Shown here one piece after another: positions 1 to 42,282 of a stretch of DNA of 64,000 bases (positions are counted from its first letter, which is position 1; each line of letters begins with the position of its first letter). The stretch comes from a virus. A program made the position numbers and the translations under genes. The notes below the pieces were generated by a model. That model ran no database searches. It was not told the DNA's origin and was given only the letters and a program-made list of their open reading frames with translations. The stretch lies in the IMG/VR virus record IMGVR_UViG_3300045988_029816. One strand, given 5' to 3'.

Positions 1-1431
1 TCAAACGCAAAATATATGCGACATACGTTCGATGGTGCTAAGTGTGATAATGGAGCATTAAGATTGGATGACAACTTCTTCTCTAAATTACCTAAAATAC
101 AAGATGTTAGATATTGCTTTGCAAATATATCTTTAGCAAAACCTATATCATTTGATTTCTTTAGAAAGAGATATGACAATATTAATACTTAGGTATTCAT
201 AAAGGTTGGCAATGAGTATAAGCCTGCGACTCTGCATGATTATAGATACGGAAGAGATAACACTTATAAAATCTGGAGCTTCTCTCATGTATTTTACAAT
301 GTTAGTCCATAGAGTGGTGCACAGTAGTTTGATATGACCACAGAAATTCCAGACAACTGTGCAAAGAATAATGACACAAGCGATCAGACTGCGTATATGG
401 AATATTATACTCGCACATATGATCCGGATACTGAAGAATATACGTATACAAAACATACTATTAATCACTGCACAGAGCTTACTGATACATAGAATTTGAC
501 AGGTGGATATTAGGCTTCATATAATCTTGGAAATGGAACAATGTTTAATAATGGATAGGTTCCTGATGGAGGCGTAAACAACTTGATTATTCCACCAGAT
601 TTCTTTTATTGTGCAGCAACTTCTCATACTTCAGATAGTGGAGATAATGGTATAACAAACTATAGTTATGCATTTGCTAAAAATAATACGTCTAATACAA
701 TGGCTGGAATTATACCTGAAAATATTTTTAAAGCAAATAGGTCTGGTATTGTAACCGGCGTATTTAACAACCAGGTAATTATACCTCGTCTAGTAGGTTC
801 TACAACATCTGGAAACGAAACAACAAATGTATATGTTTAGTATCCTAAAAACTATACTACATATTCTGTTTTGAATGATGCGTTTGGAGCGCAGCCCGTT
901 ATATTATAGGATAGCATATCTGGCACACATACAATACACAATTATTCGTTTGTAATATTAAATGAGTCAATACCTTCTACAACATCCACATTGAGCAATG
1001 CGTTTAAGAATAGTTGTATAATTCATGGTATAGATTATGGAAGTTATTCTGGAGAAGCTAGATTAAATTTGGCTTGTTCCTACAATAACGGAAACCTTGT
1101 TGAAGGATTTGATATGACTAGATTCTCATCAATTACACTAGACAATATGTTGTACACAAACTTATTGTGTGTGTTAAATGGTCCAATATTTGCTGGTACA
1201 TATTATATATCTAATTGTAAAATGGCTTCTAATAATGCTAAAATTGTATCAACGTGGGGAGAAAATATTGGTAACCATACATCTAGCTTTATAAAATGGC
1301 CTGCAGCAAATAGTAGTATTGTTAATAAGATGTTTGCAGATATAAATGGTATAACTATAACTACTGCTAATATTTAGAATTCTGGAGAAAGTTTAAAGTA
1401 CTATAAAGAAACTGGAGTAAATATAATATGA
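1..1431 (+). CDS. Tail fibre / receptor-binding-like virion protein, C-terminal part (5' end outside window); requires TAG=sense
   Basis: Frame 1 is open from nt 1 to TGA at 1429-1431, interrupted only by TAG codons. It joins track ORFs 583..840 and 991..1377. The sequence is Asn/Thr/Ser-rich and repetitive, typical of fibres. It sits directly upstream of the lysis cassette, and its stop overlaps the next ATG (ATGA). Confidence 0.6.
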
Positions 1432-1853
1432 AATTAACATTAAAAAGAATAGCTCTCCGTCCAACTTACACTATAGGTAAACTTTATATAGACGATGTAT
1501 ATTTTTGCGACACTATAGAAGATACTGTAAGAGACCTCAATAAGAATGGCAAATTTGATAATGGAGAGAAAAAGGTACATTCAAAAACGGCAATACCTTA
1601 CGGAACTTATGAGATCAAGTGGACATATTCACCTAGGTTTAAGAAGTATACACCACAGCTGATGAACGTTCCATCATTTGAAGGTATACGTATTCACGCA
1701 GGAAACACAAGCGCTGACACTGAAGGCTGTTTGATTCTCGGCAAAAACAAATAGGTTGGAAAAGTCCTTAACTCAAGAGCTACTATAAACAAGTTTTATC
1801 CAATAATAAAGGAAGCTTGTTCTAACGGAAAGGTAACTATTGAGATAAAATGA
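1428..1853 (+). CDS. YkuD/L,D-transpeptidase-fold (DUF5675-like) putative cell-wall hydrolase; endolysin candidate
   Basis: Track ORF 1428..1754 continues through one TAG (1752-1754) to TGA at 1851-1853, giving 141 aa. It carries the motif GIRIHAGNTSADTEGCLILG (His ... Gly-Cys), as in YkuD-type catalytic sites. The N-terminus 'LKRI..TYTIGKLYIDDVYFCDTIED' resembles the phage DUF5675 family. Confidence 0.55.
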
Positions 1854-2155
1854 ACAAAGTAACAGGAACATGGCGCGAGAAGATTTAGTATTCAACCGCA
1901 TGTCTCGCGTTTTTAAGCGGTTAGGTTCTCACCTGGGTACAGTATTTACAATAGGGTGAAATCTCCACAGGTGTACTAGGGTTTGTAGCTCAAACGTTAG
2001 TTTATTCAGCTAGTATATACGGAGTATCTATTTATATACAAGGCAAATTTGGTGAGATGAAAACATATTTAAAAGAGTGTTTAACTAATAATGAAAGCAA
2101 TTGTGATGTAGTAGATATTAAGCAAAATAAAGAACAACTACAAAACGCTGCTTAA
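1850..2155 (+). CDS. Putative holin (two hydrophobic segments)
   Basis: The ATG overlaps the previous TGA (ATGA). The 101 codons end at TAA 2153-2155 and contain 3 in-frame TAG. Hydrophobic stretches are STACLAFLSGQVLTWV and GVLGFVAQTLVYSASIYGVSIYI. It lies between the hydrolase and a spanin-like gene. Confidence 0.45.
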
Positions 2156-2756
2156 TGCCATTTGTGGGCTTCTAATAGCCTTTTGTGTAGCGTCTGGTAT
2201 ATTCTACCACAACAAAGCTAATAGGCTCTCACAGGAGCTTAAAATGGCTAATAATAACATCGAAGCCTATTAGGATGCCTTAAACGGTGCCTAGTAGGCT
2301 TCTGGTGTTTTAAGGCTAGATATGAAAAAGCTTAAAGATTATAACGATAATCTTGTGTAGTAGTTGGATTCTGTACGCAAGACAGAAAAGCTAAAAAGCA
2401 AAGAAATTTAGGTAGCGGCAACTTAGAAGTAGATTATAAACGTTAATAAGAGTAAGGGGGTAGGGGGTGATATTATAACTATACTTAAAGACTCTGTTTA
2501 TAAGGATAGTTTACAATATAACAACCTAACTAAAGTATACTATACAATCGGTAAAGATAGTGTTAATATCAAGTTAGATGTATAGAACACTTAGTACCTC
2601 TACGTTTATAAGCATAGAGAATATAAAAACAAAAAGAACTTCTTTAAGAGATTGATAACATTTGACTGGAAAAAGAAAGATGTGTATAAATACAAGATAC
2701 GTAATACGAATGACATACTTAAAGAAGACAGTATAAGAATAATAGAAGCAATATGA
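2091..2756 (+). CDS. Putative spanin-like lysis protein (N-terminal TM anchor plus coiled coil)
   Basis: The frame is open from ATG 2091 (second ATG at 2106 is followed directly by TAG TAG) to TGA 2754-2756. I counted 12 in-frame TAG by hand. It has a TM segment LLNAICGLLIAFCVASGIFY followed by a charged heptad-like region. It overlaps the holin 3' end. Confidence 0.45.
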
Positions 2757-3445
2757 AAACATTCTCAGCTCGTACATTGATAGATGACATACTTCTTATT
2801 GTACGAAATAACAACATAAGTGAGAGTGAGGACATGTCTAGAGATTAGATCTTATCTTGGATAATGTAGTATAAAGCTTATTTGTCTAAGAAAGAAAATG
2901 ATAAAGATGCTGAGACCGGTGATGACGAGGATCCGGATGATAGCTAGTTATCAACTATTGGACCACTTGAACTTATAGACGACCCAGATTCTGGGTCAAA
3001 GGACTGTTGCTGCTGTCATTGTTGTAAACTAAAGAGAACAAAAAATAAGCTGTATACAATGGAGAATAGTAGCGACGACATAGTTAACGTTACTGATGCT
3101 AGTGGCTGCGTTATACAGATTATGAGTAAATCTAGAAAGCATTATCATAATTTTAGAAGGTATACATACAATGAACCTATGTGTTGGTTTGATGATTAGT
3201 ATATATACGTTGATGGTAATGGTTCAGAAAACTTTAAATACATATACGTTACAGGAATATTTGACCCAACACAAACAGCTGGTAGTGAAGATGATATAAT
3301 GATACCTGGATGGATGATACCAGATATTAAAAAAGCTATCATGATTAACGAATTAGCGTTTATGCTTAAGAGGCCTAGTGACGATAGTAACAACTCAACA
3401 TTAGCAAGCGTTAAACCAAATGGTCCTCAAGATAAGGAAGAATAA
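2753..3445 (+). CDS. Virion-module protein of unknown function with a Cys cluster (DCCCCHCC)
   Basis: The ATG overlaps the preceding TGA. It is 230 aa, ends at TAA 3443-3445 and has 4 in-frame TAG. It has an acidic linker followed by SKDCCCCHCCKLK. Confidence 0.6.
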
Positions 3446-3890
3446 GAAAAGCTATACAATAGCTGATATATATAGAGACTACATTAAAAAGAACGATGTA
3501 GAGCTTAATTACGCGCGATATAAGCGCATTATAGACGAATTTAATAAAGTTGTCAAGGAAGAGATTTTAGAGCGCTCACAGCCATTTAAAATGCCTTATG
3601 GACTAGGTACTATATGCATAGTAAAATATAAACCTAAGAGCTATTCTGATTAGTCATTGTCTACAGATTATAAATCAACAAAAGAAGTAGGTAAAAGGGT
3701 TTATCATTTAAACGAGCACTCTAATGGATACAAATATAGATTATATTGGTCAAAAATACCAAGGGTATTTTCTGATAGATATAAATACTAGCTATGTATG
3801 GTTAGAGAAAACAAAAGGCACCTTGCTCAACTTATATTTAATAAACAAGATTATATAAATATAGATGATATACAAATATACAAAATGTGA
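3420..3890 (+). CDS. HU/IHF-like DNA-binding protein
   Basis: Track ORF 3420..3653 extends through 2 TAG to TGA 3888-3890, giving 156 aa. 'FNKVVKEEILERSQPFKMPYGLGTICIVKYK' fits the HU/IHF pattern (helix, then x-G-x-G-x-F/I-x-V beta arm). IHF-like genes are conserved in crAss-like virion modules. Confidence 0.5.
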
Positions 3891-3909
3891 GTCAGTTATA
3901 GCTAAAATT

Positions 3910-4728
3910 ATGGCTGACTCAAACATGCAAGAAAAGAACATACGTATTACAGATATACGAGAATGGATCTTTGAAGCTGTTGAGAAGATTGGTGCTCCTG
4001 TATAGTATGTATAGAAAGAGTCTGGTGAAGATTGCGTTCCAATATTTGAAATACACGAACATCAAGTTCCAATACCAGAAGACTTAGAGTCATTGACAAC
4101 TGTAGCCTATTCAAACAATGGAACAAATTGGGTATAGGCACTAAAAGATGAAAGCTCATTTAAGTCTAAAGCTAACACAAAGCATATACATCACTATCAC
4201 CCAGAACAACCAGCTGGAGTAATGCTGCCTACGCATAGATCGTAGCTTTTAGGAATCAATGGTAGCACTACATTAATGGATGCTATTAGAGACCATAAAG
4301 TAGATGTTCCTACATACTGGATTAAACCAGGTTGGATAGTCTTTAATAAAGACAAGGGTTTTGTTAAATTGTCATACAAGGCAATAGCTACAGATGAAAG
4401 GGGTTACCCACTTATCCCAGACTTAGCTTCATATTAGGAAGCTATATACTGGTATGTAATGATGAAGTTAAGCTTTCCAAAGTTCCTTAGAGGATCACTT
4501 GGTGGAAAAGCTAGATATAATTAGAACACATACTTCTACATATAGTAGTAGTGGAATTTCTATAGAAACCAGGCTTACGCTGAAGCAATGATGCCAAACG
4601 AAAGTGAAATGCTTACTATTAAGAATGAGTGGACTAAGCTTATACCAGAGTGGGATGATGACGAGAACTTCTTTAATAACACCGGAAAGAAATAGTTAAA
4701 CTTTAACGATTATTGCTATGGATACTAA
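3910..4728 (+). CDS. Virion structural protein, unknown function
   Basis: ATG 3910 to TAA 4726-4728, 272 aa, with 10 in-frame TAG including a TAG TAG TAG triplet. The frame is otherwise open. It overlaps the next gene's start by 11 nt. Confidence 0.6.
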
Positions 4729-7700
4729 TACTGAACCACAAATTAATAGTTTCGCAGGAGGATTAAATAGTGATGATGATCTCTCTGTTGTTGCCACAAA
4801 CTAGTATATTGATGCTAGAAATATAAAAATATCATCATATAGAGGTGGAGAAGGCAGAGATAATAGACATGGATCATTAATGCCAGTCTAGGGTGTAAAA
4901 TTAGCTGGATCATTTGCTGGCGAGAGCAACAAAGTTATTGCCACTGGTTCAATAAGAGATTACGGAGTAGTTGTTTGCATTGATGAAAATGAAAATAGAC
5001 TTAAGATCTATAGTTTTAAAAACGCAATAGGCGGAACTGTTCATGATTAGGACTTTAATAACATACAAAATAGTAGGCTTGTTGTAGACGCACCATTGTT
5101 ACCATTAGATGATGGAGAAAAATATCCTGATGCATTTGATATTTAGCTTAATTACGAGAGCGAAAACAATATCAAGCTATACTTAGCAGATTCAATACAT
5201 CCTATAATGGTTTTTAATATAAGCAATGATTTTTTATATGATGATCTTAACAAATGCTTATCTTATCCAGAAGCAGTTTGCAAACCACCGATATTTGAAG
5301 AGTATGTGCCAGGAAAAATAGAATTTGGAGTTGTAAGTTATTGTTATTAGTTATATAATAGATACGGAATACATACAGGAGCATCTATACAATGCTAGCA
5401 GATACCAATTGGCAATTATGATTTCGATAGCAAATACGTAAAGTGCGGTGGTAAATAGGGCGCTATATCAAATTGCGGAGTAAAGATATCTATACAAATT
5501 CCTAGTAATTATTGGCATCTTGATTATATCAAAGTATTTAGAGTACAGTACACGCAAAACGGATAGATGCCAATTGTATCTGTAATATACGATGCTAAAA
5601 TAAACTTTGATGAAGAAAATGATTCTTCAGAGTTAGTTATAAACGATGTTGGTAATGATCCAATAGAACATATCAGTGTTGAAGAATTAAATTCATTACA
5701 AGGCGTTAGAATAATACCTAATTCATTGGCATCTAAAGACGGTTTTCTGTTTGCCGCAAACACAAAGACAATACAGACTACTATTAAAGATTTCGATAAA
5801 TGGGATGCAAGAGCATTTAGGTTTAATTACGAAAACAAAAGCACTGTAACAGATGTTAATGGTGATAACTCATTTATAATAGACGCACACGGCAAAGACA
5901 TAGAAGACGACTCTGTTGCCGTTCCTCCATTTGACCATGATTGTTATGATGATACTTATAATAACATAAATAAAGAAGCTTCATTGTATTATGCTAATTT
6001 TGTATTCGATTCAAAATATCAATGGGTCGGAGGATCTGGTAAAAATATAGAATGGAGATTTGTTATTTCTTCTTAGGTAGAAGATTCTTGTGTAAAAGAA
6101 AACAATACAAGAAAGATAGGAACATTATACAATTATTCTCAAAAAGAAAACATATAGCAAAATAATGTTTTTTACATTGATAAAAATTTTAAACCATCCA
6201 TAATAGAGAAAGCAGAATTTGATCCTGGAATAAATAAAAACACATGGTTGATAAAGTCACTTAGACGAAATGAGATTTATCGTTACGGAATTGTTTTGTA
6301 TGATAAATATTGCCAAGCTTCTCCAGTTAAATGGATTGCTGATATAAGAACCCCAAATGTAACTGAAGAAGGTTTCTAGTTAATGTCGTCAAATACTATC
6401 GTTAATGGCAAGCGTTACGAACTAGTTATAAGAAATCTTGGAATACAATTTATGGTAAAAAGTTTACCAGAAGGCTGTACTGGTTATCAGATAGTTAGAT
6501 GTGCTAGACATGAATCTGATATTGCTACAATATCACAGGGTGTACTCAGTTCTCCTGTGTCTAATGCATATAGTAGACAGTTTGAAGGAAATAACGATGA
6601 TTATTGGGTAACAAAATACCATATGTTTTGTCCAACAGGATTCTTAACAACAAATAAGTTTATAGAAGGATATAATGTACATGATTAGCTTGTTAAAGAT
6701 GGAAAGGATTCTAAGTCTCAATGTATGACAAATATAGATAATGACAAATTATTGCAATTTGTTTCAAAGGAAATTTGTTATCAGCCAGAATCGTTTAAAC
6801 AATTTACAAAAGACAAAAAATATTATTTACAAAAATAGTCTTTTTTATTTGGAGCTAGGGGCGATCATAAGTTTCGTGATGACTAGTATGACTTTACTGG
6901 GTGGGGTGATAATGGTTCATAGTATGATTATGGACCATTAGTCGGTTATAACAAAAGAACAAGTTTTAAATTTATAATACCATGTATTTCAAACTGTGCT
7001 GTCGAGTTGTTTACTGGACCAGGTGACAATGGAGATGGAAGAGGAGAATTTTATGTTAACAACTTAACAATAAACAACGGGCTTTCTAAAGATAGTACAA
7101 TCTGTTATCTGGATATACCATTTAATCCAAGTTATTTCTATAAAGTTAATCCTTAGTCTCACAAAAATAAAGGAATTAATTATATTGATCCTTTACATTA
7201 CTTTGCGGCTACAATTGGTGGACTTGGAGACGATAGACCGTATTCGTATGCATTAGCAAAAGATTGCATTTTAAATTTTGATAGACTATATAATAGTGAC
7301 GACTAGTCTGCTAATGATAGAAAAGAAAAATCTGGTAAATTTATAATACAGAAAGCCTTCGCTTATATAAAATTGTACGAATAGAGTACTTATGTACAAG
7401 ATTTTTTTACAGGTATTTTTACACCTTCTGATGATTGGTTTACAAACGTTTATAGAAATTATATACAGGACTTTTAGTTAGTTGATCAAATAAAATGGGA
7501 TTAGGCATTCAAAAGAAACTTTAATAATGATAATAATGAACAGATGTCATCAAAGTCTTATCCAAATTATGCAGTTTCTGCTGGTGGGGCACTATTTGTA
7601 AATATGATTACCGGTGGTATTTGTAATGATTCTAATTTCAATATATTAGAATCATTTGGTAATTATAATGGCGGTTTTAAAAATGACGGAACCGGTACGC

Positions 7701-9424
7701 ATGGTGATAAAAACGCATGTTTTGGAACTGGAGGAAAGTGTTTATTGTTAAGTTGTTGGTATAAAGAAAAAGGAACAGCTGGTGCGATTTCTTATTATTA
7801 TCCTAAGAATGGCAATTATTATGATAGCTTAGAGCAAGAACTATCACAGACAGATCATACAGAAATTGGTGAGATATGCAAGATAATCAGACCAACTCTA
7901 CTTGGAACATATCTAACTAATCTTAGATAGCAAACAACTCCTTATGGTGGGTATTCGTTTACAAATAGACTTACAAATATATATTATGGAGATGGTAATT
8001 ACTTTGAGTCTATAAATAAATGGAATACAGTATTTGATGGAGATTGCCATGTAGAGACATTCGAATATACCTCTATGCATAAAGTGTATGGAACTTATAC
8101 AAAGGACGGAAGCGATAATTTACAGTTCCCTAATACACATATGATAACATACTCTATACCAACAGAATCAAATATATGGTGCAAATTCCAACATGGATGG
8201 ACATTTAGTTCTAATGCGAGAGATAATTACGCATCTTTCATATAGGCTGAACCGTGCGAGATAACAGAAGCTTACGTACAAAAAGATCCTGAATACGTTT
8301 ACAATTCTGTCTATAGTGTATATAATACAAGCATGCCGTTTGCTGCGTACGATGATCTTAATCCACAAGATTATAATAAAACTATAGATACAAGAGTATA
8401 TTATTCTGATTTAAAACAGAATGATGAAATTATAGATAGCTGGTGTAAATTTAGAAGCTCTAATTTTATAGACGTCGATTAGGAATATGGCTCTATAACT
8501 GATATATGTACATTTAAGAATGTTCTTACATTTTTCTAGGAGCAATCATTTGGTATACTCAGTGTTAATGACCGTAGTGTTGCTACAGACAATTCTGGAC
8601 AAAACATAGTATTAGGAACTGGAGGAGTACTTGATAGATATGACTACTACAGCAATACTTATGGAATGCATAAGCAGCAATTCTGTTCAGTATGTACTAC
8701 AGGTGGTTTATATTGGTTTGATAGTCATAATAATGTAATCTGCTTATTCGACGGATAGAGCGTAGTATAGCTTTCAAAACAAGGTAAAGTATAGAATATA
8801 CTGAACAAGTATAAAAAGAACGATAACTTTAAGGTATTCTACAACAATAGATACAATGAAGTTGTATTCAATGTTTTAAGCGATGATATGCAGATAGTGT
8901 ATAATGAAATGCTTGGCAAATTCACATCAACACTAACTATTCCGTTTGATGGAGCTATATAGTTCTTTAATGGAGAATATCTTGTAAAGAAAAACGATAC
9001 TGTATGTGTGTATTAGTACGATTATCTAGACGAATCGCCTAAATCAACAAATCAGTAGTTACTTTCAAGTTACGTTAAATATGTTGTTGCTCAATAGCCA
9101 CTCGTTACAAAGGTGTTTGACAATCAAGAGATTGTTACATACGAAAATCTATAGTTACAGGATGTTATATACGACTAGGATGACTACTTCTCAAAAAATC
9201 ATAAATATACATGGTAGACAGAATCTTAGAAAATAGAGTCTAGTCTAGAAGAACAGATAACACTTAGAGAAAATAATCATAGATTTGTCATACCTAGGGC
9301 TGATGGATTATTTGGAAATAGAGCTAGAGGTAAGGTCATGATTTGCAGTATAGAAGATATTAAACCAAATCCAGCTATGGCAATACAATATATAATAACA
9401 AAATATAGATAGTCATGGAGTTAA
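4718..9424 (+). CDS. Large tail protein (phage stabilisation-protein / muzzle-like), 1568 aa
   Basis: Frame 2 is open from ATG 4718 to TAA 9422-9424, with only TAG interruptions (checked codon by codon). It joins track ORFs 5567.., 6383.., 7544... The N-terminus 'NSFAGGLNSDDD' and the segment 'FFQEQSFGILSVNDRSVATDNSGQNIVLGTGGVLDRYDY' resemble podovirus tail stabilisation and tubular proteins. Confidence 0.65.
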
Positions 9425-10152
9425 AGTAGAGAAAGAAGATAAATAATATACCAAAATTCAATAACGGTATAGACCTATCTGGTAGCGTAAAAGGTATTGG
9501 TGGAGATATTACTGGTTTGAACACATATAAACAGCAACTTACATCAGTTCCAACAAGAATGGAAGTAAATGGAATGAGAACTCCTGGAAATTTATCACTT
9601 AGTTCTGGAGGAAGCGGAATAAGAACAGGAGCTGTTAATGGAACAATAGGAATGATACAAGGATATAATTCCATGTAGAACGCAGTAAAGGGAACTGATG
9701 AACTTATGGCTTATTCTGGACAAAGAACAGATTAGGCATTCGGTGTAAATTACCAAGCATAGAATGATATCAACAGACAGAAAGCCATGGACGATATATC
9801 TAAGTCGAATAGAAATGCAACATTAGGAATGGTTGGATCTGGAGCTGCTGCTGGAGCTGCTATAGGTTCAGCTATACCTGGTGTCGGTACGCTTATAGGA
9901 GGAGCAGTTGGAGCTATCACAGGATTATTCGGAGGCTTGTTTGGAAGTAAAAAAGCTAGAGAGAGATAGCGTAGAAAGATATTTAACGCACAATAGAAAG
10001 TTAATCTTATCAACTAGGTTAATCAATCGTCAGCTGCAACAGAAGGCCTTACATAGCAATATTATTTAGATAATGGTAACACGTATGATGATGTATTATA
10101 TGCTAACCGAGGAAAAGATTTAAGAAAACCAAGATATGTTAAAGGGAAATAA
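9415..10152 (+). CDS. Internal virion / ejection-type protein with a glycine-zipper membrane segment
   Basis: ATG 9415 to TAA 10150-10152, 245 aa, with 8 in-frame TAG. It contains GMVGSGAAAGAAIGSAIPGVGTLIGGAVGAITGLFGGLFG (track ORF 9787..9969). Confidence 0.55.
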
Positions 10153-11908: not shown

Positions 11909-11917
11909 TAATAAAGT

Positions 11918-13633: not shown

Positions 13634-13644
13634 TACTATTTAAC

Positions 13645-25600: not shown

Positions 25601-28600
25601 TAGAAAGTATTCTTACATCTAGTATTAACAAACGAGTTATAGATATAGCTACACCTGGTGCTCCATTTATTCAGAGATCAGTTTGGGGTATGGAAGGAAT
25701 GCCTACTAAGCTATTAGATAATCAAGTTCCTGGTATATTTAATGGCACGCTCAATCATGGTAATCGTCTTCAGATGATTAACGAAGAAGGTTCAATGGAC
25801 TGTATGTTGTCATTGGATTACTTTGTAGAATACTACGAGGACAAAAACGGCGAAGAGGTTATGTACTTTAGGCCTGCTGGCAAGAAGTGTAGACTCCAGG
25901 TATTTGATAAAGATACTAAAAAGTTTAGAAACATGTCCTTTACTGAAGCTAGAAAATGGCTTATCGATAACAAGGTTATTGGCTCTTCTTTTGATTATAC
26001 AGATAAAGACGGAAATAAAGTTCATAAAAATGGAGCTAGTGCTAACATTATTGGTTACCGTATTCCTACACAGGCTCAGTCGTCTATACATGCTTTAAGG
26101 TGTGTTGATGTATTACCTGTTGTTAGAGATACTGTTGTGCTTCCGGAGGAGTTTACAAAGATAACCGGTTCTGACTTCGATATTGATAAACTTTTCTTAA
26201 GTTGTAAACCTTACAATTATTATAAGGATAAGGATGATCATAATAAAAGGAAAGTTAATTTTGATTTTGAAGAAGGATCTGAGTAGGATTTATAGGCAAA
26301 ACTTATGGATGGATATATGTCGTTATTACTTGATTGGAAAAACGAAGACGACAAGGATTCTAGAACATGTAACATACTTCATAGGTCTATTGATAACGAT
26401 ACGTCTCTTGTTAAAGCTAAAGGCGCATCATATTTAGGCTTTAATGTACTTTCCGACATAGAGTAGAATCTTGATAAAGAACAAGTTGTAATGCCATACG
26501 ATTTCTATACTCCTAGAAATCAAGTAGAGACTAAAGATACGTTCTTAACAGGTAAAACTGGTATTGGTCCGTTTGCGTTGAATAATAACAGTTAGATTCT
26601 TACTATGCTTTATGATGTTAAGTTTACACAGAAAGTAGGTACTATTATGAAAGACCTTGGTCTTGATAGACTTGGTAGAACCCTTGATAGAAATCAGCAG
26701 AATATATTGTCTTGGCTGTCTGCTATGATTAATGCTCATGTTGATATTGCTAAGGATCCATACATTACTAGATTAAATGTAAACCCTTATACATACAATC
26801 TTGTAAACCTACTTCTTAGAGTCGGTCTTGGAGAGGATACATTCTATTTTACAACTCAAGGCATCATGAAGGATTTGGCTTTTGCGTACAACGATTCTGT
26901 TAGTACGTATATGGCTGATGACAGTAAGACACCTTGGTAGAGACGCAGAGATGCTGAAAACGATGTTCTTAAGAAGTATTTCTCAGAAGAGCCAGAAGTT
27001 GATAATGATCTTAATTGCATACCTAGTATAATGGAGGAAATACAGAAAGGTTTTGATGATATTCCTACAGCTTTAGAGCAAGACTATATAATTAGGTAGA
27101 TTTTAGGAGAATTCTAGAAAGATGGTAAATGGATACGAGGCTATATTGACGCAGAAGGCAACGAACATTTAGTTGATGTTAAGAACAAGGTTAGAAATTC
27201 TATAATTAGAGAGATGTCTATAAATTAGAATCCTAACAAAAAGGGATACATAAACCAAACGTCAACTAAGAAGATGTTTACAGTAATGTCTAGAGATGGT
27301 AAGGAAATAAAATTATCACCATTGGATGTTACAAGGTGGATATTTATAGCTAATAAGAGGTTCGAAAAGCCTGGTGATGCATTGGCAAATCTTGTTAAAT
27401 ATTCTAAGATAGACACAAAGAAACAAGGTAAAAATATAGCTGAGCAAGATGCTTATCTTAAGGGATATAATGATACTTATAATCCTGGAGGATAGACATA
27501 CTAGCAGTTTGAGCCTACAAGTTTATCTGCGTTAAAAGACGGTTCATATATAGGAAAAAAGACTAAGTATGCTACAGATTTATATAGAGACATAGTAGGA
27601 CAGCAGCTCCTTTCTTCTTGTATGGCTGTGTTTGGAACCAGAAATAAAGAAGGTAAGAGAATGAAGGATGGTATATTGCCTCAAATACTTAAAGCAATAA
27701 ACAGAAAAGATGGAGCAGTTCCAGCTGACCTTCTTAACAAGATTATGATACAGATAACATCTTGTATTAAGTCAGAGTTCTTTAACAATTATTGTGATGA
27801 AAACGATATAAATATTCACGACTTATTCTCTGGAGACAATACGATTTATGATAGATTGCTTGATCTTTAGATTAAGGCCGAATCTGATCCAAATTATTCT
27901 TACCTTAAAAACAATCTGCTTTTGAAGGTTCTCGTTCCAACTTTAAATACTGAAGACGGTCCTAATAAAATAGAACACGATCAGATAGAATTACTTAATA
28001 CGTTTGGAGAAAGAGAGGGTACATACGAAAAACCAAAGTTTGTAAAGTTCTTTAATTCAATGGATGATGATAGTAAGAATTCTAACTACGTATACGAAGC
28101 TTGGGAAAGATTACTTGAAGACACAGATGAAACTGTAAAGAATTTTGCTAGAGATTTGGTTGTATATTCGTTCTATTCGTCTGGAGATATGTCTGGTTTC
28201 TCTAAGTTCTTTAAGTACGTTCCAAATAGTTGGAGACTTAATTCTGGATATGTTGATTTCGTAAGAACTAAACTTAAGGACTTAAATACAAGAATACCAT
28301 CTCCTGTTTATATATAGAATATGGTTGATGATATAATTTTAAATAACTGGTTCGATAATGATTTTGTAAAAGAGTATCGCCCTAGTTAGCTTATTGGAGT
28401 AGTTGGACAAAATACAATAACCTATAATCCTCACGCGAAGCCAGAAGATATGATTAGTATGTATGCTAAGTATGAAGGTTATTAGAAAAAGGTTTTAACG
28501 AACAACTCTGGAGAAGCTATTAATATGTTTGGTATATTATCTCCATTTGATCATGCTGCCCCTAATATAGCATGCGGCTTAGCTGTAAGAAATGGAAAAT

Positions 28601-29250
28601 ATCAATCAACTATTGATTATCAGCATCCACCTAGATTTATAAAGGTGTCTAGAAATAACATGAAGAAAGGACAATCTCAACACGATTACACCATCTATAT
28701 GCATTATGCTACTGGAGAAAAACGTATTCAGAATAGTAATGGCGAATATGAAGCTATACGTTATCCAATTTACGTTAAAGTAAATCCTAAAGGATATAAA
28801 AACGGAATATATAACATTACGGAATTCGGAACACCAAACTCAGTAGACAATGTATTTGGTATACAAAGTAGAGATGCTGCACAAAAATCATGGAAAGATA
28901 TAGAGCCTACTGCTTTTGACCAAGAGATTAATAAGGTTAAAATTGAGCAAGGTAAGCCTACTATATCAAGAGTAAGTGATGTTGAAAATATCGATAGAAT
29001 ATTAATAGGTACAGAGAACGGTAAGATTCTTCCTCCTTTAGGAAGCGAATATTATAGAATATTTGACGATCAAGGAGAGCGTGAATGGAGTTCAAGCGTT
29101 CCTGGCATGTACAACTATGGAGAAGGTGACGAGAAGGGATCATTACTTGAAGACTTGTTTAACTTTAAAGATTCTCAATTAAATAAAAAAGATACTAAAG
29201 GTAAAACGTTAGCAAATCTAGATGATCTAGATGATAAATTAGGATGCTAA
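13645..29250 (+). CDS. Giant polyvalent virion protein (5201 aa) containing the crAss-type two-barrel virion RNA polymerase, a PD-(D/E)XK nuclease-like motif, an HExxH metallopeptidase motif and a glycine-zipper segment
   Basis: Frame 1 was read codon by codon from ATG 13645 to TAA 29248-29250; only TAG interrupts it, and it joins more than 15 track ORFs. Catalytic-like 'IIGYRIPTQAQSSIHAL...ITGSDFDIDKLF' (DFDID at 26173-26187) parallels beta-prime 'NRAPTLHRLGIQAF...NADFDGDQM'. 'VDQDGGIHIIDFKTSK' lies at about 18583-18618. HEAFH lies at 21217-21231. A Gly-zipper lies at about 15590-15830. Confidence 0.8.
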
Positions 29251-29265
29251 TAAAATGTATTAGTT

Positions 29266-32200
29266 ATGGTTTGTATAATAAGAAGTAAATATTAGAACGA
29301 GCTAAAACAACTATCAGGTATATTGGGCGGTGAGAAAGCCGCCCACTATGCTTTATGTATGAATAATGGGTACAATCTTACTGATACCAAAGAAGGTAAG
29401 CATTCTAAATTATTCGATTAGCTCAAAGAAAAATACGGAGAAGATGAGGCCATAAGGATGAAAACTTATACTTTCACTCCGTAGTTCACAGATTAGTTTT
29501 GTGATTGGTATAATGATAATATAAACAAAAATAACGAAATTATAAAAAATGCTACAGTTATATGGGGGCATCCAGGAACTGGTAAGACATGGCTTTTCAA
29601 ATAGGGTAGAAAAGATATAATAGATTTTGATTCTGAATATAAATCAAAATTAGGAAATCTAGAATAGAGAGAAAAGCTTAAGAAAGAAATTGGAAAGCAA
29701 GAATACAACAAAAAACTTGATTAGTTATTTGATTAGGCAAAACAAGAGGCTAAAGAAACCGGTAAGAAACTTCTTGTTAGTGATATGCATTTTCTTAGAG
29801 ATAGAGCAGATGATCTCGATGCTATAACAAATATTTCCGATAAAGAATTTATTCAAAGAAGTCATTAGAGAGGAGAGCATGATGAAGCAGATAAAATGGA
29901 TTGGAAGAAATCCATAAATAAAGCAATGTCAAACGCTCCTAAAGATAAAATAATTAACACAACTGGATATATATCAAATCTTTTAGATGAATCTGAAATA
30001 AATAAAATAGACGAAAACGGAGAACCTAAAATAGAATATGTAGAAAAATTATATAACGAGTATAATGATGGTAATTTTAGTGATTCAATAACATTTTCAA
30101 CCCTTGGATACGAATCGAACTTGCAAAAGATGAAGCAGGCTATGCAAGATGAGGGAGATGCAATAGATTCAGCTGTACAGCAATCTATAAATACTTCTGT
30201 AAAAAATATTGCTATTAAGCCAGGAGAGTCTTTAATACATTTTTTCAAAAGAAAGAACGTTATTAAAGGTAAACTTATTACTGATAGAGTAAACCAGATA
30301 ATGTAGAAAAGACAACAAGTTTTAGCTTAGCATTATGGTTTAAAATAGGTAGTAAAAGATGATGGTTCTATAGAATATTCTACTGATAGCAAAGATACAG
30401 ATAAGCAAATTCTTGTTAAGTTTGTAAATAGTCTTGGTGATAAACGCGGAATGTATAGAGAAGCAGAACATACTTTGTACATCTCTCTTATAAATGCTGA
30501 TCCGACAACTATGAATCACGAATTAGCTCACTATTATGTAAGAACATTCTGGTAGAGTAAGGAAGTATAGAAAGCTTTGTCTATATTTGATGATAAGAAA
30601 CTTAGTTCTAGATAGCTTGAGGAAAGATTAGTGGAGGAGATAACATCACGTACAATGGCTGAAAACTTCTCTACAGAGCCACAAAAGCGGTCTATAATAC
30701 AATAGTTCTGGAACAGCTTTAAAAGCCTCTTAAATCGCCTTATTTTGGGCAAAATGACCGAATCTAAGAAGAATGATATACTTGACTCTATAGCAGCTAA
30801 CTTTTACTTGAATAAATAGCTAGAATAGGACTACAAGTCAATGGCTTTCTACGATAAGTATAATGGCGATATGTTTTAGCAGGGCGATATACCAAATGCT
30901 AATGACTTAAAGGTATATGAAACTATATCAACAGCCGTTAAGCGTAGATATTCTGCAGAGCGTGCTCAAAAGGCAAAAGATACTATAAAGATATAGACTC
31001 TTAGAGCAAAAATAAAAGAGTACCAAGAAGATATTGATTTAGGATTCTTTGGAGAACGTGTAACCAGAAGTACAGATGAGCAGCAAGAGAAAATAACATC
31101 TAACGTAGAATGGATTCTAGATTAGGCTAGACGAGAATTAAATGTACTTGGAAGACATTTATCAGACAATAGAGCAGGTGTAGAATAGATGACAGCAAAA
31201 TAGTTATTCGACGCACTTACAAACGTTGTTGGATATTATGAATATATATTTAATAATAAGCAGTACGGAATATTCTAGTCTTTAGGAAAATATGGCAATA
31301 GTGGTATAATAGAATTTAAAAACGGTAGCACTTTGTATCAGGCTTTTCAAGAAGCAAAAATAGATTTGGATTCTATACATGAAGAGCTTAATACTTAGAT
31401 AAAAGAATATCTTGGAAAGCGATTATATAATTTCGTATAGGATAATGTAACAATTGGAGACAAAGATGTATTTTACCAGAATGTTATGCATTGGTTATAC
31501 AATGAAATAGACAATGGCTCATTAAATGCATTCGAAAAGTATGTTGGTATAGCTTCTAGCTCAAAGTCTTAGTTAATTAGAATTGTTGATAATATGATTC
31601 AATCAGTCAAGAATGAGAAAAGAAGAAACGCTCTTACTGTTGGTCATGAATTTGTCAGCAAAATGAACAAGTTAGCTGGTCATTCTGTTTCTAATTATTA
31701 GGCTAGATTTTGTGAGACTGATTCTGATGGGAAAACTACCGGTTATTGGATAAGGCCAATAAACTACGGTCAGTATTATAAAGAGAAAAAACAATTCGTT
31801 ATCAATCTTGCAAAAAAGCTCGGGTTGAATCCGGATTCAAAAACAGGTAGAGTTGATTTGTCTAACGTTGATACAAAAACAAAAAGAGATTTCTTAAACA
31901 GCATTGAAGACTGGGTTGGAGAACATGCACACAGAAGATATAAGGCTGAATATTATAAAAAGAAGAGAGAGTTTTTGTCAGATGACACAATGAGGACAAT
32001 GGGCGCAATACAAAGACAAATAAATGTCCTGTTGTCTAAATAGTATGATGAAGATGGATATTTTATGCCTTACAGATTAGGAAAATCTGATAGAGATTTA
32101 CTTGAAAGACTTTAGAGAGAAAAATAGTAGTTATCTAACTTTTATGATAGAATAGAAGTTTCTTCTGGCGAAGTTAAAATAGTTCCTAAGACAGGCGATG

Positions 32201-35200
32201 CTTTACGTATGGCTGAAGAAATTCATGCGTGGTACAATTATATTAATGGGAAAATAAAATACAAGCCTAATGTAGAAAAATACAATGCTGGATTAAAAAA
32301 GCTACAAGATTAGTTATAGAATGCAAGTTCTTCGTCAGAAAAGTTAAAGATACAAAAACGTATAAAAAGCTACGTATATTATAATAGTAAATTGTAGTAT
32401 ACGGAAGACTTCTAGAACCTTTTGAACGAATGTCATTCTGGTGAACAGGATAAGAGACTGGCTATACTGTAGGAGAGAAGGAGAAAACTGCTCATACCAG
32501 CTAAAGATGTCAATGACGCATTAGCTTCTCCAGACTTACAGAATTTGACTATTGAAGACTTAAAATAGATACAGTATCTTGATGAGTAGATATCTAGAAG
32601 AAAGCTTATAATAGAAAATAATTATGAAACATTAAAGTCAAAAGAAGAGAGCGGCACACTAACTCCTGCAGAAAGAAAGTGTCTTGATAAGTTAGAAAAG
32701 TCAAAGGAAGAACCATCTTGCGATTTTAATGATATAGCAGCAATGGATGAAGTTAAGGTTCGTGGAACGGAAACTACTATGTACGATTGGTGGGAAAACA
32801 AGCTTAAAAACGAAGGTTGGAGCCAGTAGGAGATTACTGATTTACTGTGGTACACAGATAGAAAAACTGGAGAATCTAGAGTATTAAGCTGCTTTTTTAG
32901 AATGGTCCCAAAAGTTGATGAAAATAGTGAGGATGAATTAACGTTACCGAATGGTAGAAAAATAAAGGTATTAGAAAGAGTTCCAGGCAACGCTTATTCT
33001 GAATTAGATGAGACTTCCGAGTTGGCTGATGAAGAGTATGATAAGACATCAAATGAAACAATGCAGCCTAAAAAGAATGGTATATATAATGGTAAGACAT
33101 TCTCGTACGAAAACAAGTAGTATAATAAGCTTACAGAGGAAGAAAAGGATTTCTTAAATAACTATATTATTAAGAAATTGATGTGGGGCTCTAATGAAAA
33201 AATAGCAGGTAAAGTATCAGCTAAATCATATAGAATGCCACAAATACATGGAAATTCTGTAGAAATGATGTGGGGTAGAGGATTTGGGCCACTTGGTATA
33301 GCAAAGTCAATAGGATATGCTGCTGGGCAATTTTCTTAGATAAACGAAACTGATACAGAATTCGATATGTCTATGTCTGACGACTTAGCTATGAGACCAG
33401 ACGGAACAAAGGTTGGTGTTATTCCTATTAGATATGTAAAGACGCTTGATGACCCAGAACATATTTCTACAGATATTATAGGATCTGTAATGTCTTACTG
33501 GATGATGGCAGAAAATTTTAGACTTGTGTCATAGTTAACACCTGATTTGGAATTGATTCACGATTCTGTAAATAACGGTACAACTACAGATACAGCAAAA
33601 GTTATTAGAGAAATGATAGATACATATATGTATGACAAACATACAAAGTTAAATGAAAACTCTAATAAGAAAATGTCTAAATCTGCACAGAGATTAATAA
33701 AGTCTGCAGATACAATTAGAAAGAATACATCTAGAACACTTTTGTCTCACAACTACTTTACTATTATGAAGGGATTCCTTGATGCTAGTAAGACGGTTGG
33801 AATTGAAGCTCTTACAGGTAAGTATATAACAGCCAAGGATATGGCTTACGCTCATAGTTATATAGCTAGATCTTTAGGGACTATTGCTGCAAGCGTTGGA
33901 AAACCAAACGTTCATGGTTGGCTAGCAGCAGCAATGCAGTATAATGGTTGTACGAAGAGTATAGACGAATCATTTAGCCATACACAAAATACTTGGGCTA
34001 CGAAGTTTCTTAGAGACAATCTGTTAATGGGAGGTTATACGGTAACCGACTTTATGGTTACAGGTATGATATGTGCTTCAGTGTATCATCATTTTAGGCT
34101 AGTACATGTCCCAATAGTAGAAAAAGTAGACAAATCAAAAATCCTATATAATGCAGAGTACAAAGTTACTGGATGGGAGGATAGATTTGTAAACCAAGAA
34201 GAAGCTATGGATTTGTATTATAAAGCCGGACTTGGTGATTAGGCTGGTATGAAAAACTATGAAAATGCAAAAATAACTTTGCATGATGCTTATATTGAGG
34301 AGAATAGCAATTTCGTAATTCGTGATGAATTTAAAGATAAAGTTAGCAAGCGTCTTGAAGATATAGTGTCTAACACTATAAAAGAAAGATCAGCCGTAGC
34401 AAATGGTATGATGCCAGAGAATGGAAGACACTCTGTAGCATATACAAATCCATTTGCAAGATGGATAATGGTAATGCGTGGATATCTTCCTACTCTTGGA
34501 TTTGATAGATTTAAAGCTGGTAGTGACTTCTCTGAATATAAGTCAGATAAATATAACCCTACTTCTTTTAATGCTATAAAATACAAAAGAAATAATGGCG
34601 AGATGTCTGATGAAGAGTTTGAGAGAGCTAGAGAGTACTATGAGAGATATGATGGTTAGTTCAATTTTAACACCGCTACAGTTGATAGAGGTCAAGTAAG
34701 GGCTACTATAACAGCATTACGAAAGACAATAAATAATGCGCTTTAGTTAGCAAAGCATCTAATTACGTTTGATTTCAATGCTATCAAAAATGATAAAGGC
34801 AGAAGAAGTAAAACTTATAACGAAAAGAAGATGTTGTTAAAGTCTGCCTTAGAAATAGGCTTTATTGCGGCTATGGGCATATTGTCAGTATTTACTGCAT
34901 AGATGATATAGGATCTTGATGATGACGATGATGATACTGTACAGTATGCAACATATGCAATAGCGTTATTAAATCAGGGATTATTAACAGAGTCTTCTAC
35001 TGCGTGGGTTCCAAACACCGTATTAGACTTGTTTACATCTCCTACTACGGTTTATGCATATTTATAGAGATACGCATATTTTGGAAATATTGTAGGATAG
35101 TTAGCATATTTAGGTTTAACTACTATATCTGATGAAGATGACGCTTCTTACTATGAAGATGTTCTTGGCAAGAATTCGTCTTATGCTGGTCGAACAAAAT

Positions 35201-35472
35201 TGGATAAGGATCTTATTAAATTGTCTCCTTTATTCGGAATACCTGGAAGTAATCTTTATGAAAACTTTACTGTATCCGGATTAAAAGGTAAATATAAATT
35301 TTATAGTCAAAGCGTTGCACCTAATTCAACTCTATATAAAATAAACAAAGCCTTTAGCGGAGGTGATAAGAAATCATCCAAATCTAATTCAAACCCTTGG
35401 CTTAATGAAGATTACGAACCGTCTTTTGGCGGAGGTTCTTCTTATGATCCTTCTGACAGATTTGACGAATAA
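29266..35472 (+). CDS. Giant virion protein 2 (2068 aa): N-terminal P-loop NTPase/kinase-like domain, HExxH metallopeptidase motif, C-terminal hydrophobic segments
   Basis: Frame 1 is open from ATG 29266 to TAA 35470-35472 with only TAG interruptions (checked). It has Walker A GHPGTGKT at 29566-29589 and HELAH at 30517-30531. A hydrophobic/acidic region lies near 34850-35100. It sits immediately downstream of the RNAP gene, as in the crAss-like RNAP block. Confidence 0.7.
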
Positions 35473-35515
35473 TCGTATAATTGATGTCGTAACGTTTTAA
35501 ACAAAACAAAAGAAT

Positions 35516-35553
35516 AAAAGCTCAAGTCTCAATTAAGAGGCCTGAGCTTTTTT
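35516..35553. terminator. Bidirectional intrinsic terminator at the junction of the convergent late (+) and early (-) modules
   Basis: AAAA-GCTCAAGTCTC-AATTAA-GAGGCCTGAGC-TTTTTT forms an 11-bp stem with one mismatch and a 6-nt loop. It has a T-run on + and an A-run upstream. It lies 45 nt after the TAA of the last + gene and overlaps the 3' end of the - gene 35522..36028. Confidence 0.7.
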
Positions 35554-36028
35554 CATTCTCAAAGTATACGTCGTCTAGTGTGACGTAATTATCGTTAAGA
35601 GGAAGATTACTCTCTTCGCAACTTATTTTATTATATTTGTCACATATGAAACGATTAATATAATTATCTGCACAACACCAGAATTTGTTTATTTTGTCAC
35701 GTTCTTTTGTTGTAAGATTTACAATACCATCCATAATGTCCAGATATTTTTTTGGAATTACTTTTAGTATATATACAGTAAAAGGTTTGTCTTTAATATA
35801 TATGGTGTCTGATCCATAATATGTTGACAAACCTTTTATTTTTCTATCTGTATACCATCGTTCATCTGTATGACACAAATTGCTATATACAAGAAAGATG
35901 TGGGAATCTAAGTATGGCTTATCAATATTACTTGTATAAGCATCATAGAACCCAACATCTTCTGATATATCTTCAAGCATCATATTTTCTCCTAACAACG
36001 GGATTAATACTTTGCACTGTTTACTCAT
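35522..36028 (-). CDS. Hypothetical protein (168 aa)
   Basis: Intact standard-code ORF. Its start overlaps the upstream stop (ATGA). It is the last gene of the - strand operon. Confidence 0.6.
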   Translation of the reverse strand: MSKQCKVLIPLLGENMMLEDISEDVGFYDAYTSNIDKPYLDSHIFLVYSNLCHTDERWYTDRKIKGLSTYYGSDTIYIKDKPFTVYILKVIPKKYLDIMDGIVNLTTKERDKINKFWCCADNYINRFICDKYNKISCEESNLPLNDNYVTLDDVYFENEKSSGLLIET

Positions 36029-39612: not shown

Positions 39613-39626
39613 AACTTATAAGTTAG

Positions 39627-39711: not shown

Positions 39712-39722
39712 ATATAAATTAG

Positions 39723-40947: not shown

Positions 40948-41037
40948 AATCTCTATTATTTTAATATACGTAATGCTAACATATCAAGTTTATTCTCAGC
41001 ATAGTATGCTGCTGATCGAATAGATCGATATATCAAT

Positions 41038-41778: not shown

Positions 41779-41803
41779 GATACAATGATACTAAAAGTTT
41801 TAA

Positions 41804-42259: not shown

Positions 42260-42282
42260 AATTCAGCCTAAATTTTAATTGC

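Follow-up and report, generated by a model that had tools for sequence, protein, structure and literature searches.

[quoted passage not shown] Spanin and tail-tube genes rich in TAG have also been noted (Borges 2021, bioRxiv 10.1101/2021.08.26.457843). The hosts of crAss-like phages generally are reported to be Bacteroidetes (Yutin 2021, PMC7886860). The DNA analysed here, referred to as the window, is a 64,000-nt stretch from a human gut metagenome. It belongs to a Burzaovirus (Crassvirales, Suoliviridae, the 'delta' crAss-like group), of whose genome it covers ~61%. It carries a signature virion gene of the order, the muzzle (Pfam PF25731, crAss_MUZ, E 9.3e-175, together with PF25729), and its gene order is that of cr124_1, cr7_1, cr53_1 and cr10_1. 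Nucleotide identity is at or near the species level, 98.2% over 51 kb, with crAssphage cr124_1 (RefSeq NC_055899.1; Burzaovirus faecalis, Suoliviridae, Oafivirinae), with which the window shares gene order, the positions of TAG codons (unchanged for 252 of 259 aligned TAGs) and a tRNA with anticodon CUA, although the window phage is a separate strain, whose sequence appears to derive from ENA contig ERZ919530 k127_116617. In cr7_1 (RefSeq NC_055895.1, Burzaovirus coli) the flanks are 94–98% identical to the window, whereas the giant genes at 12.7–36 kb have no detectable nucleotide similarity.

If translation of the + strand is made to stop at TAA and TGA alone, positions 1 to 35472 give a run of 13 adjoining ORFs. 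A preliminary description of this DNA had claimed just such a set of tightly packed genes, and retranslation bears it out: table 15 yields proteins of up to 5,201 aa (2,068 and 1,568 aa being among the other large products), whilst the longest + strand ORF of the window in the standard code is 274 aa. All 13 genes end in TAA (9/13) or TGA (4/13). Nine of the 12 junctions overlap, three of them as ATGA, in line with the start/stop overlaps that had been pointed out, and the other three have gaps of 9–15 nt. Over its 11,855 codons the block has TAG in frame 261 times and is never interrupted by TAA or TGA; the hand counts made earlier for three stretches (12 TAGs in 221 codons at 2091..2756, 10 in 272 at 3910..4728 and 8 in 245 at 9415..10152) are exact. 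In-frame TAG, at 2.20 per 100 codons, lies near its off-frame rate of 2.6, while TAA and TGA, which occur off frame at 3.1–6.5 and 1.1–4.8 per 100 codons respectively, are absent in frame. The interruption of the late frames by TAG only is therefore not a matter of chance. Read in the standard code the block does look shattered, with its longest ORF at 274 aa, as might be expected of decayed pseudogenes or of an assembly or sequencing artefact. The chance of either is negligible: over 35 kb the frames are broken by a single kind of stop codon out of three; nearly all the aligned TAGs are conserved in cr124_1, as given above; the same full-length muzzle is encoded in hundreds of independent metagenomic contigs; and the final 10.9 kb of the window recurs at 100% identity in an independent ENA contig. 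Readthrough moreover gives full-length homologues of crAss-like proteins, as in the muzzle, where the PF25731 match covers residues 8–1405.

The genes of this block, all on the + strand, begin with the C-terminal 476 aa of a ~2,496-aa virion protein (1..1431; nine in-frame TAGs, stop TGA), which starts upstream of the window and has its cr124_1 orthologue at 74064..81554. There follow a DUF5675 gene of the lysis cassette (1428..1853; one TAG; PF18925, E 8.7e-34; phrog_1501), named 'putative transpeptidase' in RefSeq, and a gene for a hydrophobic protein of 101 aa (1850..2155; three TAGs), which position and sequence suggest to be holin-like and which lacks annotation in the RefSeq relative. 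The Rz-like spanin gene (2091..2756; phrog_739, E 1.3e-5) leads the window in its preference for TAG, which makes up 12 out of 14 Gln-equivalent codons. After genes for a virion structural protein (2753..3445; four TAGs; phrog_9863, E 1.9e-15) and for a 156-aa protein (3420..3890; two TAGs; phrog_12177, E 1.3e-24) comes a tail-tubular-type gene (3865..4728; phrog_33740, E 4.9e-65), 1.1 kb downstream of the spanin, in which TAG accounts for 10 of 14 Gln-equivalent codons; we name it from its place directly upstream of the muzzle gene, where relatives carry the annotation 'tail tubular protein'. The muzzle gene itself (4718..9424; 1,568 aa, 36 TAGs) found 711 homologues. Beyond it lie genes for a glycine-zipper protein (9415..10152; 245 aa, eight TAGs) and for proteins of 590 aa (10136..11908; 17 TAGs) and 571 aa (11918..13633; 11 TAGs), and then the gene for the giant protein of 5,201 aa (13645..29250; 98 TAGs), which is cut in two by the linear break of the RefSeq cr124_1 record. 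Its DFDID motif, taken with published work (Yutin 2021, PMC7886860), makes it a putative virion-packaged RNA polymerase; a Pfam scan of it gave a weak PD-(D/E)XK match and nothing else. The recoded block closes with a gene (29266..35472; 50 TAGs) that encodes 2,068 aa and stops at TAA.

Codon comparisons support the decoding of TAG as glutamine in these late genes, the code 15 assignment that had been proposed at the outset. Among 50 codon changes involving TAG relative to cr124_1 and cr7_1, 35 are exchanges with CAG (30) or CAA (5), and CAG to TAG is a commoner change than CAG to CAA (8 versus 3, and 9 versus 7). In alignments with crAss-like homologues the TAG positions do not fall at protein ends, and glutamine is favoured opposite them: across eight muzzle homologues from distant Suoliviridae, with four of the homologues lacking TAG altogether, it is the commonest residue (16.4% against a background of 2.9%, or 5.7-fold), TAG itself is enriched 6.2-fold and no other residue exceeds 2.2-fold. 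The remaining 15 changes involve non-Gln codons such as TAT, TGG, GAG and AAA, none of them singly more than six times, and lysine and glutamate are mildly enriched opposite TAG in the distant homologues, so that one might consider a different amino acid (Tyr, Trp, Lys, Glu or pyrrolysine). Lysine and glutamate are, however, the usual conservative replacements of glutamine, and with both the codon exchanges and the residue enrichment so heavily on the side of glutamine any such assignment is highly improbable. For crAss-like phages other than this one, proteomics likewise returned glutamine at TAG (Peters 2022, PMC9523058).

The suppressor tRNA bears on the same question. The preliminary description had suggested a search for one reading CUA, and such a tRNA is present in the same genome, though not inside the 64,000-nt window: it lies ~6.4 kb past the 3′ end, close to where the + strand block begins, and was read from a contig (L016) that is 100.000% identical to window positions 53,069..64,000 (the last 10.9 kb). 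Both cr124_1 and cr7_1 also have the tRNA(CUA), as do three more contigs, and cr53_1, likewise recoded, has its own; the standard-code phage cr10_1 has no tRNA(CUA), and its 20,781 late codons contain no internal TAG. ARAGORN labels the molecule 'Pyl', which would favour pyrrolysine, but this label follows from the CUA anticodon only, and no pyrrolysine genes were seen in the early ORFs of the window. The D-arm and T-arm are identical to those of a bacterial tRNA-Gln(CUG), a match that argues against a non-Gln reading and suggests a glutaminyl-type body. Its acceptor end has a U1:A72 pair, discriminator A73, G.U at 2:71 and C-G at 3:70. The identity set of E. coli GlnRS comprises G73, G2:C71 and G3:C70. 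Because A73 and the 2:71 and 3:70 pairs differ from this set, charging with glutamine is not proven. A Pfam scan of the 36 early ORFs of the window returned no release factor, aminoacyl-tRNA synthetase or RF1-inhibitor candidate, and the RefSeq product names, by which the rest of the genome was surveyed, include no release factor or synthetase. In amino acid composition, the recoded proteins are richer in glutamine than those of the standard-code relative (5.3% versus 3.5%).

The early, replication block occupies the − strand at 35522..63731 and is readable in the standard code as 36 ORFs (7,123 codons), whose products include an AAA ATPase, DUF1064, a Toprim primase, AAA_24, a DnaB-type helicase and an ECF sigma factor (54189..54746); the longest, of 636 aa, has a RefSeq counterpart annotated as DNA polymerase. 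These ORFs had been described as intact and free of internal TAG, and they are: there is none in 7,123 codons, against the ~157 that the late-block rate predicts. Three early genes terminate at TAG, namely 57828..58319, with an in-frame TGA two codons on that overlaps the ATG of the next gene; 54776..55192, 29 nt ahead of the ATG of the sigma-factor gene; and 61615..61905, with an in-frame TGA three codons on. In cr124_1, where early-strand CDSs have been annotated as reading through TAG, seven of the eight affected genes have the TAG right at the C-terminus (codons 494/518, 138/162, 163/165, 95/96, 81/83, 190–191/210 and 49/57), a pattern of genuine stops with spurious tails behind them. The lack of internal TAG, the three TAG-terminated genes and these C-terminal positions together support TAG as a stop in the early block. 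If code 15 instead applied throughout the genome, TAG would never be a stop for the phage and the early genes would simply avoid it. The CDS coordinates of NC_055899.1, which read through TAG on both strands and over-extend several early genes, are drawn in this way; six TAGs are scattered through one early-strand gene outside the window; and in the two genes where a TGA soon follows the TAG either reading yields nearly the same protein. Readthrough of the TAG at 54776, however, would make the gene run 43 nt into the one for the sigma factor, and with the shortfall of ~157 expected codons and the C-terminal clustering in cr124_1 also against it, we consider a genome-wide code 15 very unlikely.

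The two codes meet at a convergent terminator near 35.5 kb, as the earlier description had placed it. A bidirectional intrinsic-terminator-like hairpin (35511..35559), with an A-tract on its 5′ side and a T-tract on its 3′ side, lies between the converging blocks and reaches into the final codons of the − strand gene at 35522..36028. Its folding energy is −20.7 kcal/mol (z −5.86), no shuffled sequence folds equally well, and the sign of the GC skew flips at the same boundary. This is a clean boundary of strand and module, but the one at the far end of the genome, where the blocks diverge, is less so, because of the early-strand gene with its six scattered TAGs. Two + strand genes upstream of the tRNA(CUA) already contain TAG as well, and the switch therefore follows neither strand nor position relative to the tRNA strictly.

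Our favoured reading, to which we assign a probability of roughly 90%, is that early genes use the standard code, that late genes use TAG for glutamine by way of the phage tRNA(CUA), and that translation of late proteins is delayed as a result. The − strand replication and early genes, in the standard code, could be read by the host translation machinery straight after infection. The + strand genes for the tail, lysis cassette, muzzle, cargo proteins and giant packaged polymerase are written with TAG as glutamine and would be decoded by the tRNA(CUA), so that late proteins, the TAG-dense spanin and tail-tube above all, would stay incomplete until the suppressor tRNA had accumulated. The change of code would thus work like a timer, or safety catch, that holds back assembly and lysis at the level of translation. 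What the present analysis itself shows are the reading frames, TAG's identity as glutamine, a tRNA(CUA) in the genome and early genes free of internal TAG; for the delay and the timer role we infer from published work.

The same decoding might have been selected for another end. Yutin 2021 (PMC7886860) proposed in its discussion that the suppressor sabotages host translation through readthrough of host TAGs, as an anti-defence measure, which would make the phage's own TAG use a by-product. Late in-frame TAG close to the neutral off-frame rate (2.2 versus 2.6 per 100 codons) and the raised glutamine content of the recoded proteins both fit drift after release from selection. Use of TAG is nevertheless gene-specific: it makes up 12/14 of the Gln-equivalent codons in the spanin and 10/14 in the tail-tube, whereas the cr124_1 major head protein and gp22 have no TAG among 16 and 13 Gln codons, respectively, and no CAA either. 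The bias in spanin and tail-tube is, moreover, statistically significant across genomes (Borges 2021, bioRxiv 10.1101/2021.08.26.457843). Both points argue for selection on individual genes, and we think host sabotage rather unlikely as the selected function; it and the timing of late genes are not mutually exclusive. A tentative variant, which we hold possible if still doubtful, is that TAG serves as a throttle on translation, graded from one gene to the next, and not as a switch for the whole module. It draws on the gene-specific use of TAG, the early-strand gene with six TAGs, the TAG-containing genes upstream of the tRNA and the back-up TGA found within three codons in two of the three TAG-terminated early genes. 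If this were true, the abundance of the suppressor tRNA would set the timing and stoichiometry of individual proteins, and the early genes would be proofed against late readthrough.

A delayed late programme of the kind we favour has counterparts among other phages. The Agate and Jade phages (Borges 2021, bioRxiv 10.1101/2021.08.26.457843) follow the same logic, with late and lysis genes locked behind a reassigned stop, but both the stop codon and the amino acid are different (TGA to Trp). In Jade phages a release factor and a tRNA synthetase adjoin the tRNA, whereas the Pfam scan of the 36 early ORFs found no RF1/RF2 or aminoacyl-tRNA synthetase domain of the sort that marks a Jade- or Lak-type code-change module. 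Dual-code phage genomes identified with Mgcod (bioRxiv 10.1101/2022.06.29.495998) likewise consist of blocks each in one code; that work is a detection tool and adds no biological difference. The closest match is the published code 15 of crAss-like phages, in which likewise none but the block of structural and lysis genes is recoded, replication genes keep the standard code and the phage supplies a suppressor tRNA; the preference of spanin and tail-tube genes for TAG is shared with the crAss-like set of ~105 kb in Borges 2021. Nothing of substance separates the window from these systems. Because the recoding has been published, and the CDS coordinates of a 98%-identical genome already read through TAG, the late-gene TAG-to-Gln recoding described here is a known phenomenon and nothing new; what the window contributes to it is the exact coordinates of one code boundary, at the 35.5-kb terminator.

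Under the standard code the longest plus-strand ORF of the window is 274 aa; with TAG as a sense codon it reaches 5,207 codons. Reading TGA or TAA as sense instead does not restore long ORFs, the longest on the plus strand then being only 330 and 274 aa, respectively. With TAG as sense, nucleotides 1..35472 resolve into 13 contiguous plus-strand ORFs, g1 to g13, whose coordinates are those obtained after picking ATG starts. The series opens with the partial g1 (1..1431) and continues with g2 (1428..1853), a DUF5675 protein of the lysis cassette, g3 (1850..2155; 101 aa, 3 TAGs and a hydrophobic segment), the Rz-like spanin g4 (2091..2756; phrog_739), the virion structural protein g5 (2753..3445), g6 (3420..3890) and g7 (3865..4728; phrog_33740), whose slot is labelled tail tubular protein in relatives. 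These are followed by g8 (4718..9424), the crAss muzzle protein (PF25731, E 9.3e-175), then g9 (9415..10152), g10 (10136..11908), g11 (11918..13633), g12 (13645..29250; 5,201 aa, with a DFDID motif) and g13 (29266..35472; 2,068 aa). Adjacent genes overlap at nine of the 12 junctions, in three cases by ATGA, and lie 9–15 nt apart at the other three. Across the 11,855 codons of g1–g13 there are 261 in-frame TAGs (2.20%), near the off-frame TAG rate of 2.6%, and TAA and TGA occur in frame solely as the 13 terminators (nine TAA, four TGA), against off-frame rates of 3.1–6.5% and 1.1–4.8%. The preliminary description had drawn attention to contiguous, TAG-interrupted genes on this strand, and the frames, the counts and a minus strand without internal TAGs all confirm it; its hand counts of TAG in g4, g7 and g9 (12 in 221 codons, 10 in 272 and 8 in 245) proved exact on recounting.

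The minus-strand block encodes an AAA ATPase, a DUF1064 protein, a Toprim primase, an AAA_24 protein, a DnaB-type helicase and an ECF sigma factor, so that, given the gene content of both strands, the labels 'late block' and 'early/replication block' are fair. The DFDID motif of g12 and its fit to published descriptions (Yutin et al., 2021) suggest that it is the giant virion-packaged RNA polymerase of crAss-like phages. The gene g3 sits between the DUF5675 and spanin genes, overlapping the latter by 65 nt, and is a candidate holin that carries no annotation in the RefSeq record NC_055899.1. The linear break of that record cuts the 5,201-aa gene, the C-terminal 2,626 aa being labelled 'DNA helicase' and the N-terminal part left unannotated.

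NC_055899.1 ('CrAssphage cr124_1'; Crassvirales, Suoliviridae, Oafivirinae, Burzaovirus faecalis; 101,532 bp, human faeces) is 97.9% identical to window positions 4700..12000 by blastn against GenBank phage records, and 98.2% identical over 51 kb of the whole window, inside which the arbitrary ends of the linear record fall. The same search gave 92.9% identity over 4700..12000 for cr7_1 (NC_055895.1). This second relative has no blastn match (E <= 1e-20) to 12748..36020, which covers g12, g13 and the 3′ part of g11, whereas the tail genes flanking that region are 94–97% identical and the entire early block 97.9%. Its equivalent giant ORFs are 5,443 and 1,945 aa long. The contrast suggests that the genes for the packaged polymerase and cargo were replaced as a module, or diverged very rapidly, between these two species of the same genus. 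Beyond the 3′ end of the window the sequence can be followed in L016, a human-gut contig (ENA ERZ919530 k127_116617, 104,431 bp), which is the same genome, since it matches window 53,069..64,000 at 100.000% identity over 10,932 bp.

The amino acid encoded by TAG was addressed by two independent tests, a codon-level DNA comparison with cr124_1 and cr7_1 and an alignment with distant RefSeq homologues of the muzzle protein. The best 120 matches of a large protein search were near-identical relatives only (>= 87% identity), themselves translated through TAG and thus unusable for this purpose. In the codon comparison, an in-frame TAG on either side was involved in 50 aligned codon differences, with CAG as its partner in 30, CAA in five and other codons in 15. 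Exchange of CAG for TAG even outnumbers exchange of CAG for its synonym CAA (8 versus 3 and 9 versus 7 in the two comparisons); the two comparisons are phylogenetically non-independent, but the direction is unambiguous. The distant set comprised eight muzzle homologues from other genera of the Suoliviridae, 26–31% identical, four of them without any TAG. Glutamine is the commonest residue facing the window's TAGs in these eight proteins (41 of 250, or 16.4%, compared with a 2.9% background, a 5.7-fold enrichment); the enrichment is 6.2-fold for TAG itself and about 2-fold for Lys and Glu, and none of the eight terminates at a TAG position. Taken together, the codon exchanges and the residues in distant homologues mean that TAG behaves as a glutamine codon. 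Counting TAG as Gln, the late proteins contain 5.3% glutamine, compared with 2.9% in the window's early proteins and 3.5% in the late proteins of the standard-code relative cr10_1. Recoding seems to have raised the glutamine content, as expected if new TAGs come from neighbouring codons at tolerant sites.

Searches of the window with ARAGORN and Rfam found no suppressor tRNA, the only elements detected being two tRNA-Val(GAC), a tRNA-Met, a permuted tmRNA and a hammerhead ribozyme. Nor did the early proteins of the window include a release factor, an aminoacyl-tRNA synthetase or another code-change gene. In L016, however, at the equivalent of window 70,447..70,518, lies a 72-nt tRNA with a CUA anticodon, tRNA(CUA), flanked by a small plus-strand gene and a dUTPase gene. 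An identical tRNA is present in cr124_1 (47896..47967, annotated as tRNA-Gln), in cr7_1 and in two further contigs, and a third further contig carries it with three differences. It has a U1:A72 pair, which is typical of bacterial tRNA-Gln. In a scan of bacterial genomes, the sole exact match to its D-arm and T-arm was a tRNA-Gln(CUG) in a Phycisphaeraceae MAG; this single match backs the glutamine type and is uninformative as a guide to the host. The recoded relative cr53_1 has its own tRNA(CUA) immediately upstream of terL, whereas standard-code cr10_1 has none; its 20,781 late codons include no internal TAG, and TAG is the stop codon of six late genes. Just upstream of tRNA(CUA), outside the window, there is a second tRNA-like gene (contig locus L003, 2679..2752; cr124_1 47678..47751; Rfam tRNA, 38.3 bits) with an abnormal anticodon loop, drawn with 6 nt by ARAGORN and with 8 nt in an alternative fold.

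In the early block (35522..63731, minus strand), TAG appears to keep its standard meaning. The 36 ORFs of this strand, 7,123 codons in all with a longest ORF of 636 aa (43778..45688), contain no internal TAG, against about 157 expected, and three genes (54776..55192, 57828..58319 and 61615..61905) end in TAG. In the latter two, there is a TGA in frame two or three codons beyond the TAG (57822..57830 and 61606..61617), the TGA at 57822 overlapping the ATG of the next gene. In this very small sample, such a TGA could be a back-up stop for when the suppressor tRNA is active. The CDS coordinates of cr124_1 read through TAG on both strands, giving eight early-strand CDSs with an 'internal' TAG; in seven of these it sits at the very C-terminal end (codons 494/518, 138/162, 163/165, 95/96, 81/83, 190-191/210 and 49/57), a pattern that marks real stops with a spurious extension behind them. 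That annotation lengthens at least seven early genes beyond their TAG stops. The three TAG ends, the C-terminal TAGs in cr124_1 and the absence of internal TAGs support TAG as a stop in the early genes, as the preliminary description had held. Between the two converging blocks stands a hairpin (35511..35559; dG -20.7 kcal/mol, z -5.86), flanked by an A-tract and a T-tract and so able to terminate transcription in both directions, and the sign of the GC skew flips there.

Restriction of the recoding to one module, as originally claimed, holds only in part: the sharpness described applies to the boundary at 35.5 kb and not to the other one, which lies outside the window. In the early-strand operon, the second gene (L016 6134..6604, about window 67.1–67.6 kb; cr124_1 44749..45219, minus strand) is interrupted along its 156 codons by six scattered TAGs but by no other stop; it seems to be recoded despite lying on the 'standard-code' strand. 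Also outside the window, the first two plus-strand genes are TAG-free, and the third and fourth, upstream of tRNA(CUA), have three TAGs and one. Use of TAG within the recoded block is uneven as well. The codon makes up 12 of 14 Gln-equivalent codons in the spanin g4 and 10 of 14 in g7, compared with 0 of 16 in the major head protein of cr124_1 (63149..64684) and 0 of 13 in gp22 (67776..68906), both found also in L003 (18150..19685 and 22777..23907), outside the window and inside the recoded block. These two genes also lack CAA, using CAG only. Presumably the most abundant virion proteins, they avoid the suppressor-dependent codon.

Several other elements lie in the early block, the tmRNA, the ribozyme and the tRNAs among them being on the minus strand. 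A permuted two-piece tmRNA (55833..56068 by Rfam RF04321, 66.7 bits against a gathering score of 47; 55742..56098 by ARAGORN) has a predicted tag peptide, GNVNNIVDYTNVA, with VA as its last two residues and TAA as its stop. A permuted tmRNA at the same position in cr10_1 (Rfam 49.6 bits; tag GNNFVTDYTQLAVA) and cr53_1 indicates a position conserved across the Suoliviridae. A role in recoding, such as rescue of ribosomes that pass TAG stops, was considered and rejected; the element is present in both standard-code cr10_1 and recoded cr53_1 and is thus not tied to TAG recoding. Our literature search found no paper on the function of the permuted tmRNA in Crassvirales. An ORF-free stretch of about 2.1 kb (49551..51706) has all three kinds of stop in all six frames, so it is not a gene hidden by another recoding, and it shows no Rfam family match and no notable repeats. 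Gaps of similar size occupy the syntenic position in cr53_1 (85519..87645) and cr10_1 (18886..20963), and the stretch is a candidate large non-coding RNA or replication origin. A RAGATH-1 hammerhead ribozyme (62480..62565; RF03152, 76.9 bits), together with Hatchet ribozymes and RAGATH-9 and RAGATH-14 RNAs in the equivalent regions of relatives, makes the early block of this phage family rich in self-cleaving ribozymes. The first tRNA-Val(GAC) (39626..39711), unusually long at 86 nt, and the tRNA-Met(CAT) (58390..58464) pass the Rfam tRNA threshold, and the tandem second tRNA-Val(GAC) (39722..39796) falls below it.

The frames, the glutamine identity of TAG, the presence of tRNA(CUA), the TAG-free early genes and the terminator are results of the present analysis; from the literature we infer that the early genes would be read by unmodified host machinery, that tRNA(CUA) would then build up and make the TAG-bearing late mRNAs translatable, and that the TAG-densest genes (spanin and tail tube) would be the tightest locked. 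To be annotated properly, the genome calls for two codes. Standard-code gene calling breaks up 35 kb of virion genes, and TAG as sense throughout, as in the RefSeq CDS coordinates, over-extends several early genes past their true stops. The window cleanly illustrates how a phage rewrites the genetic code of the cell during infection, with one boundary at a single terminator hairpin.

All of this has precedents. [quoted passage not shown] Glutamine was detected in peptides at TAG positions in two crAss-like phages, and peptides from the fraction in which early proteins were expected showed no recoding (Peters et al., 2022; PMC9523058). Mgcod detects such dual-code blocks (bioRxiv 10.1101/2022.06.29.495998), and the CDS coordinates of the 98%-identical RefSeq genome NC_055899.1 already read through TAG. 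Borges et al. (bioRxiv 10.1101/2021.08.26.457843) reported that TAG is preferred in the spanin gene and in a tail-tube gene that lies 1.1 kb, or two genes, further downstream, and put recoding forward as a means of timing lysis and late genes; the window has the same layout, g4 ending at 2756 and g7 starting at 3865. Publications on this phage group thus already cover the principle, the amino acid and the tRNA, and even the TAG richness of the spanin and tail-tube genes, so that the finding is correct yet already known and adds nothing new.
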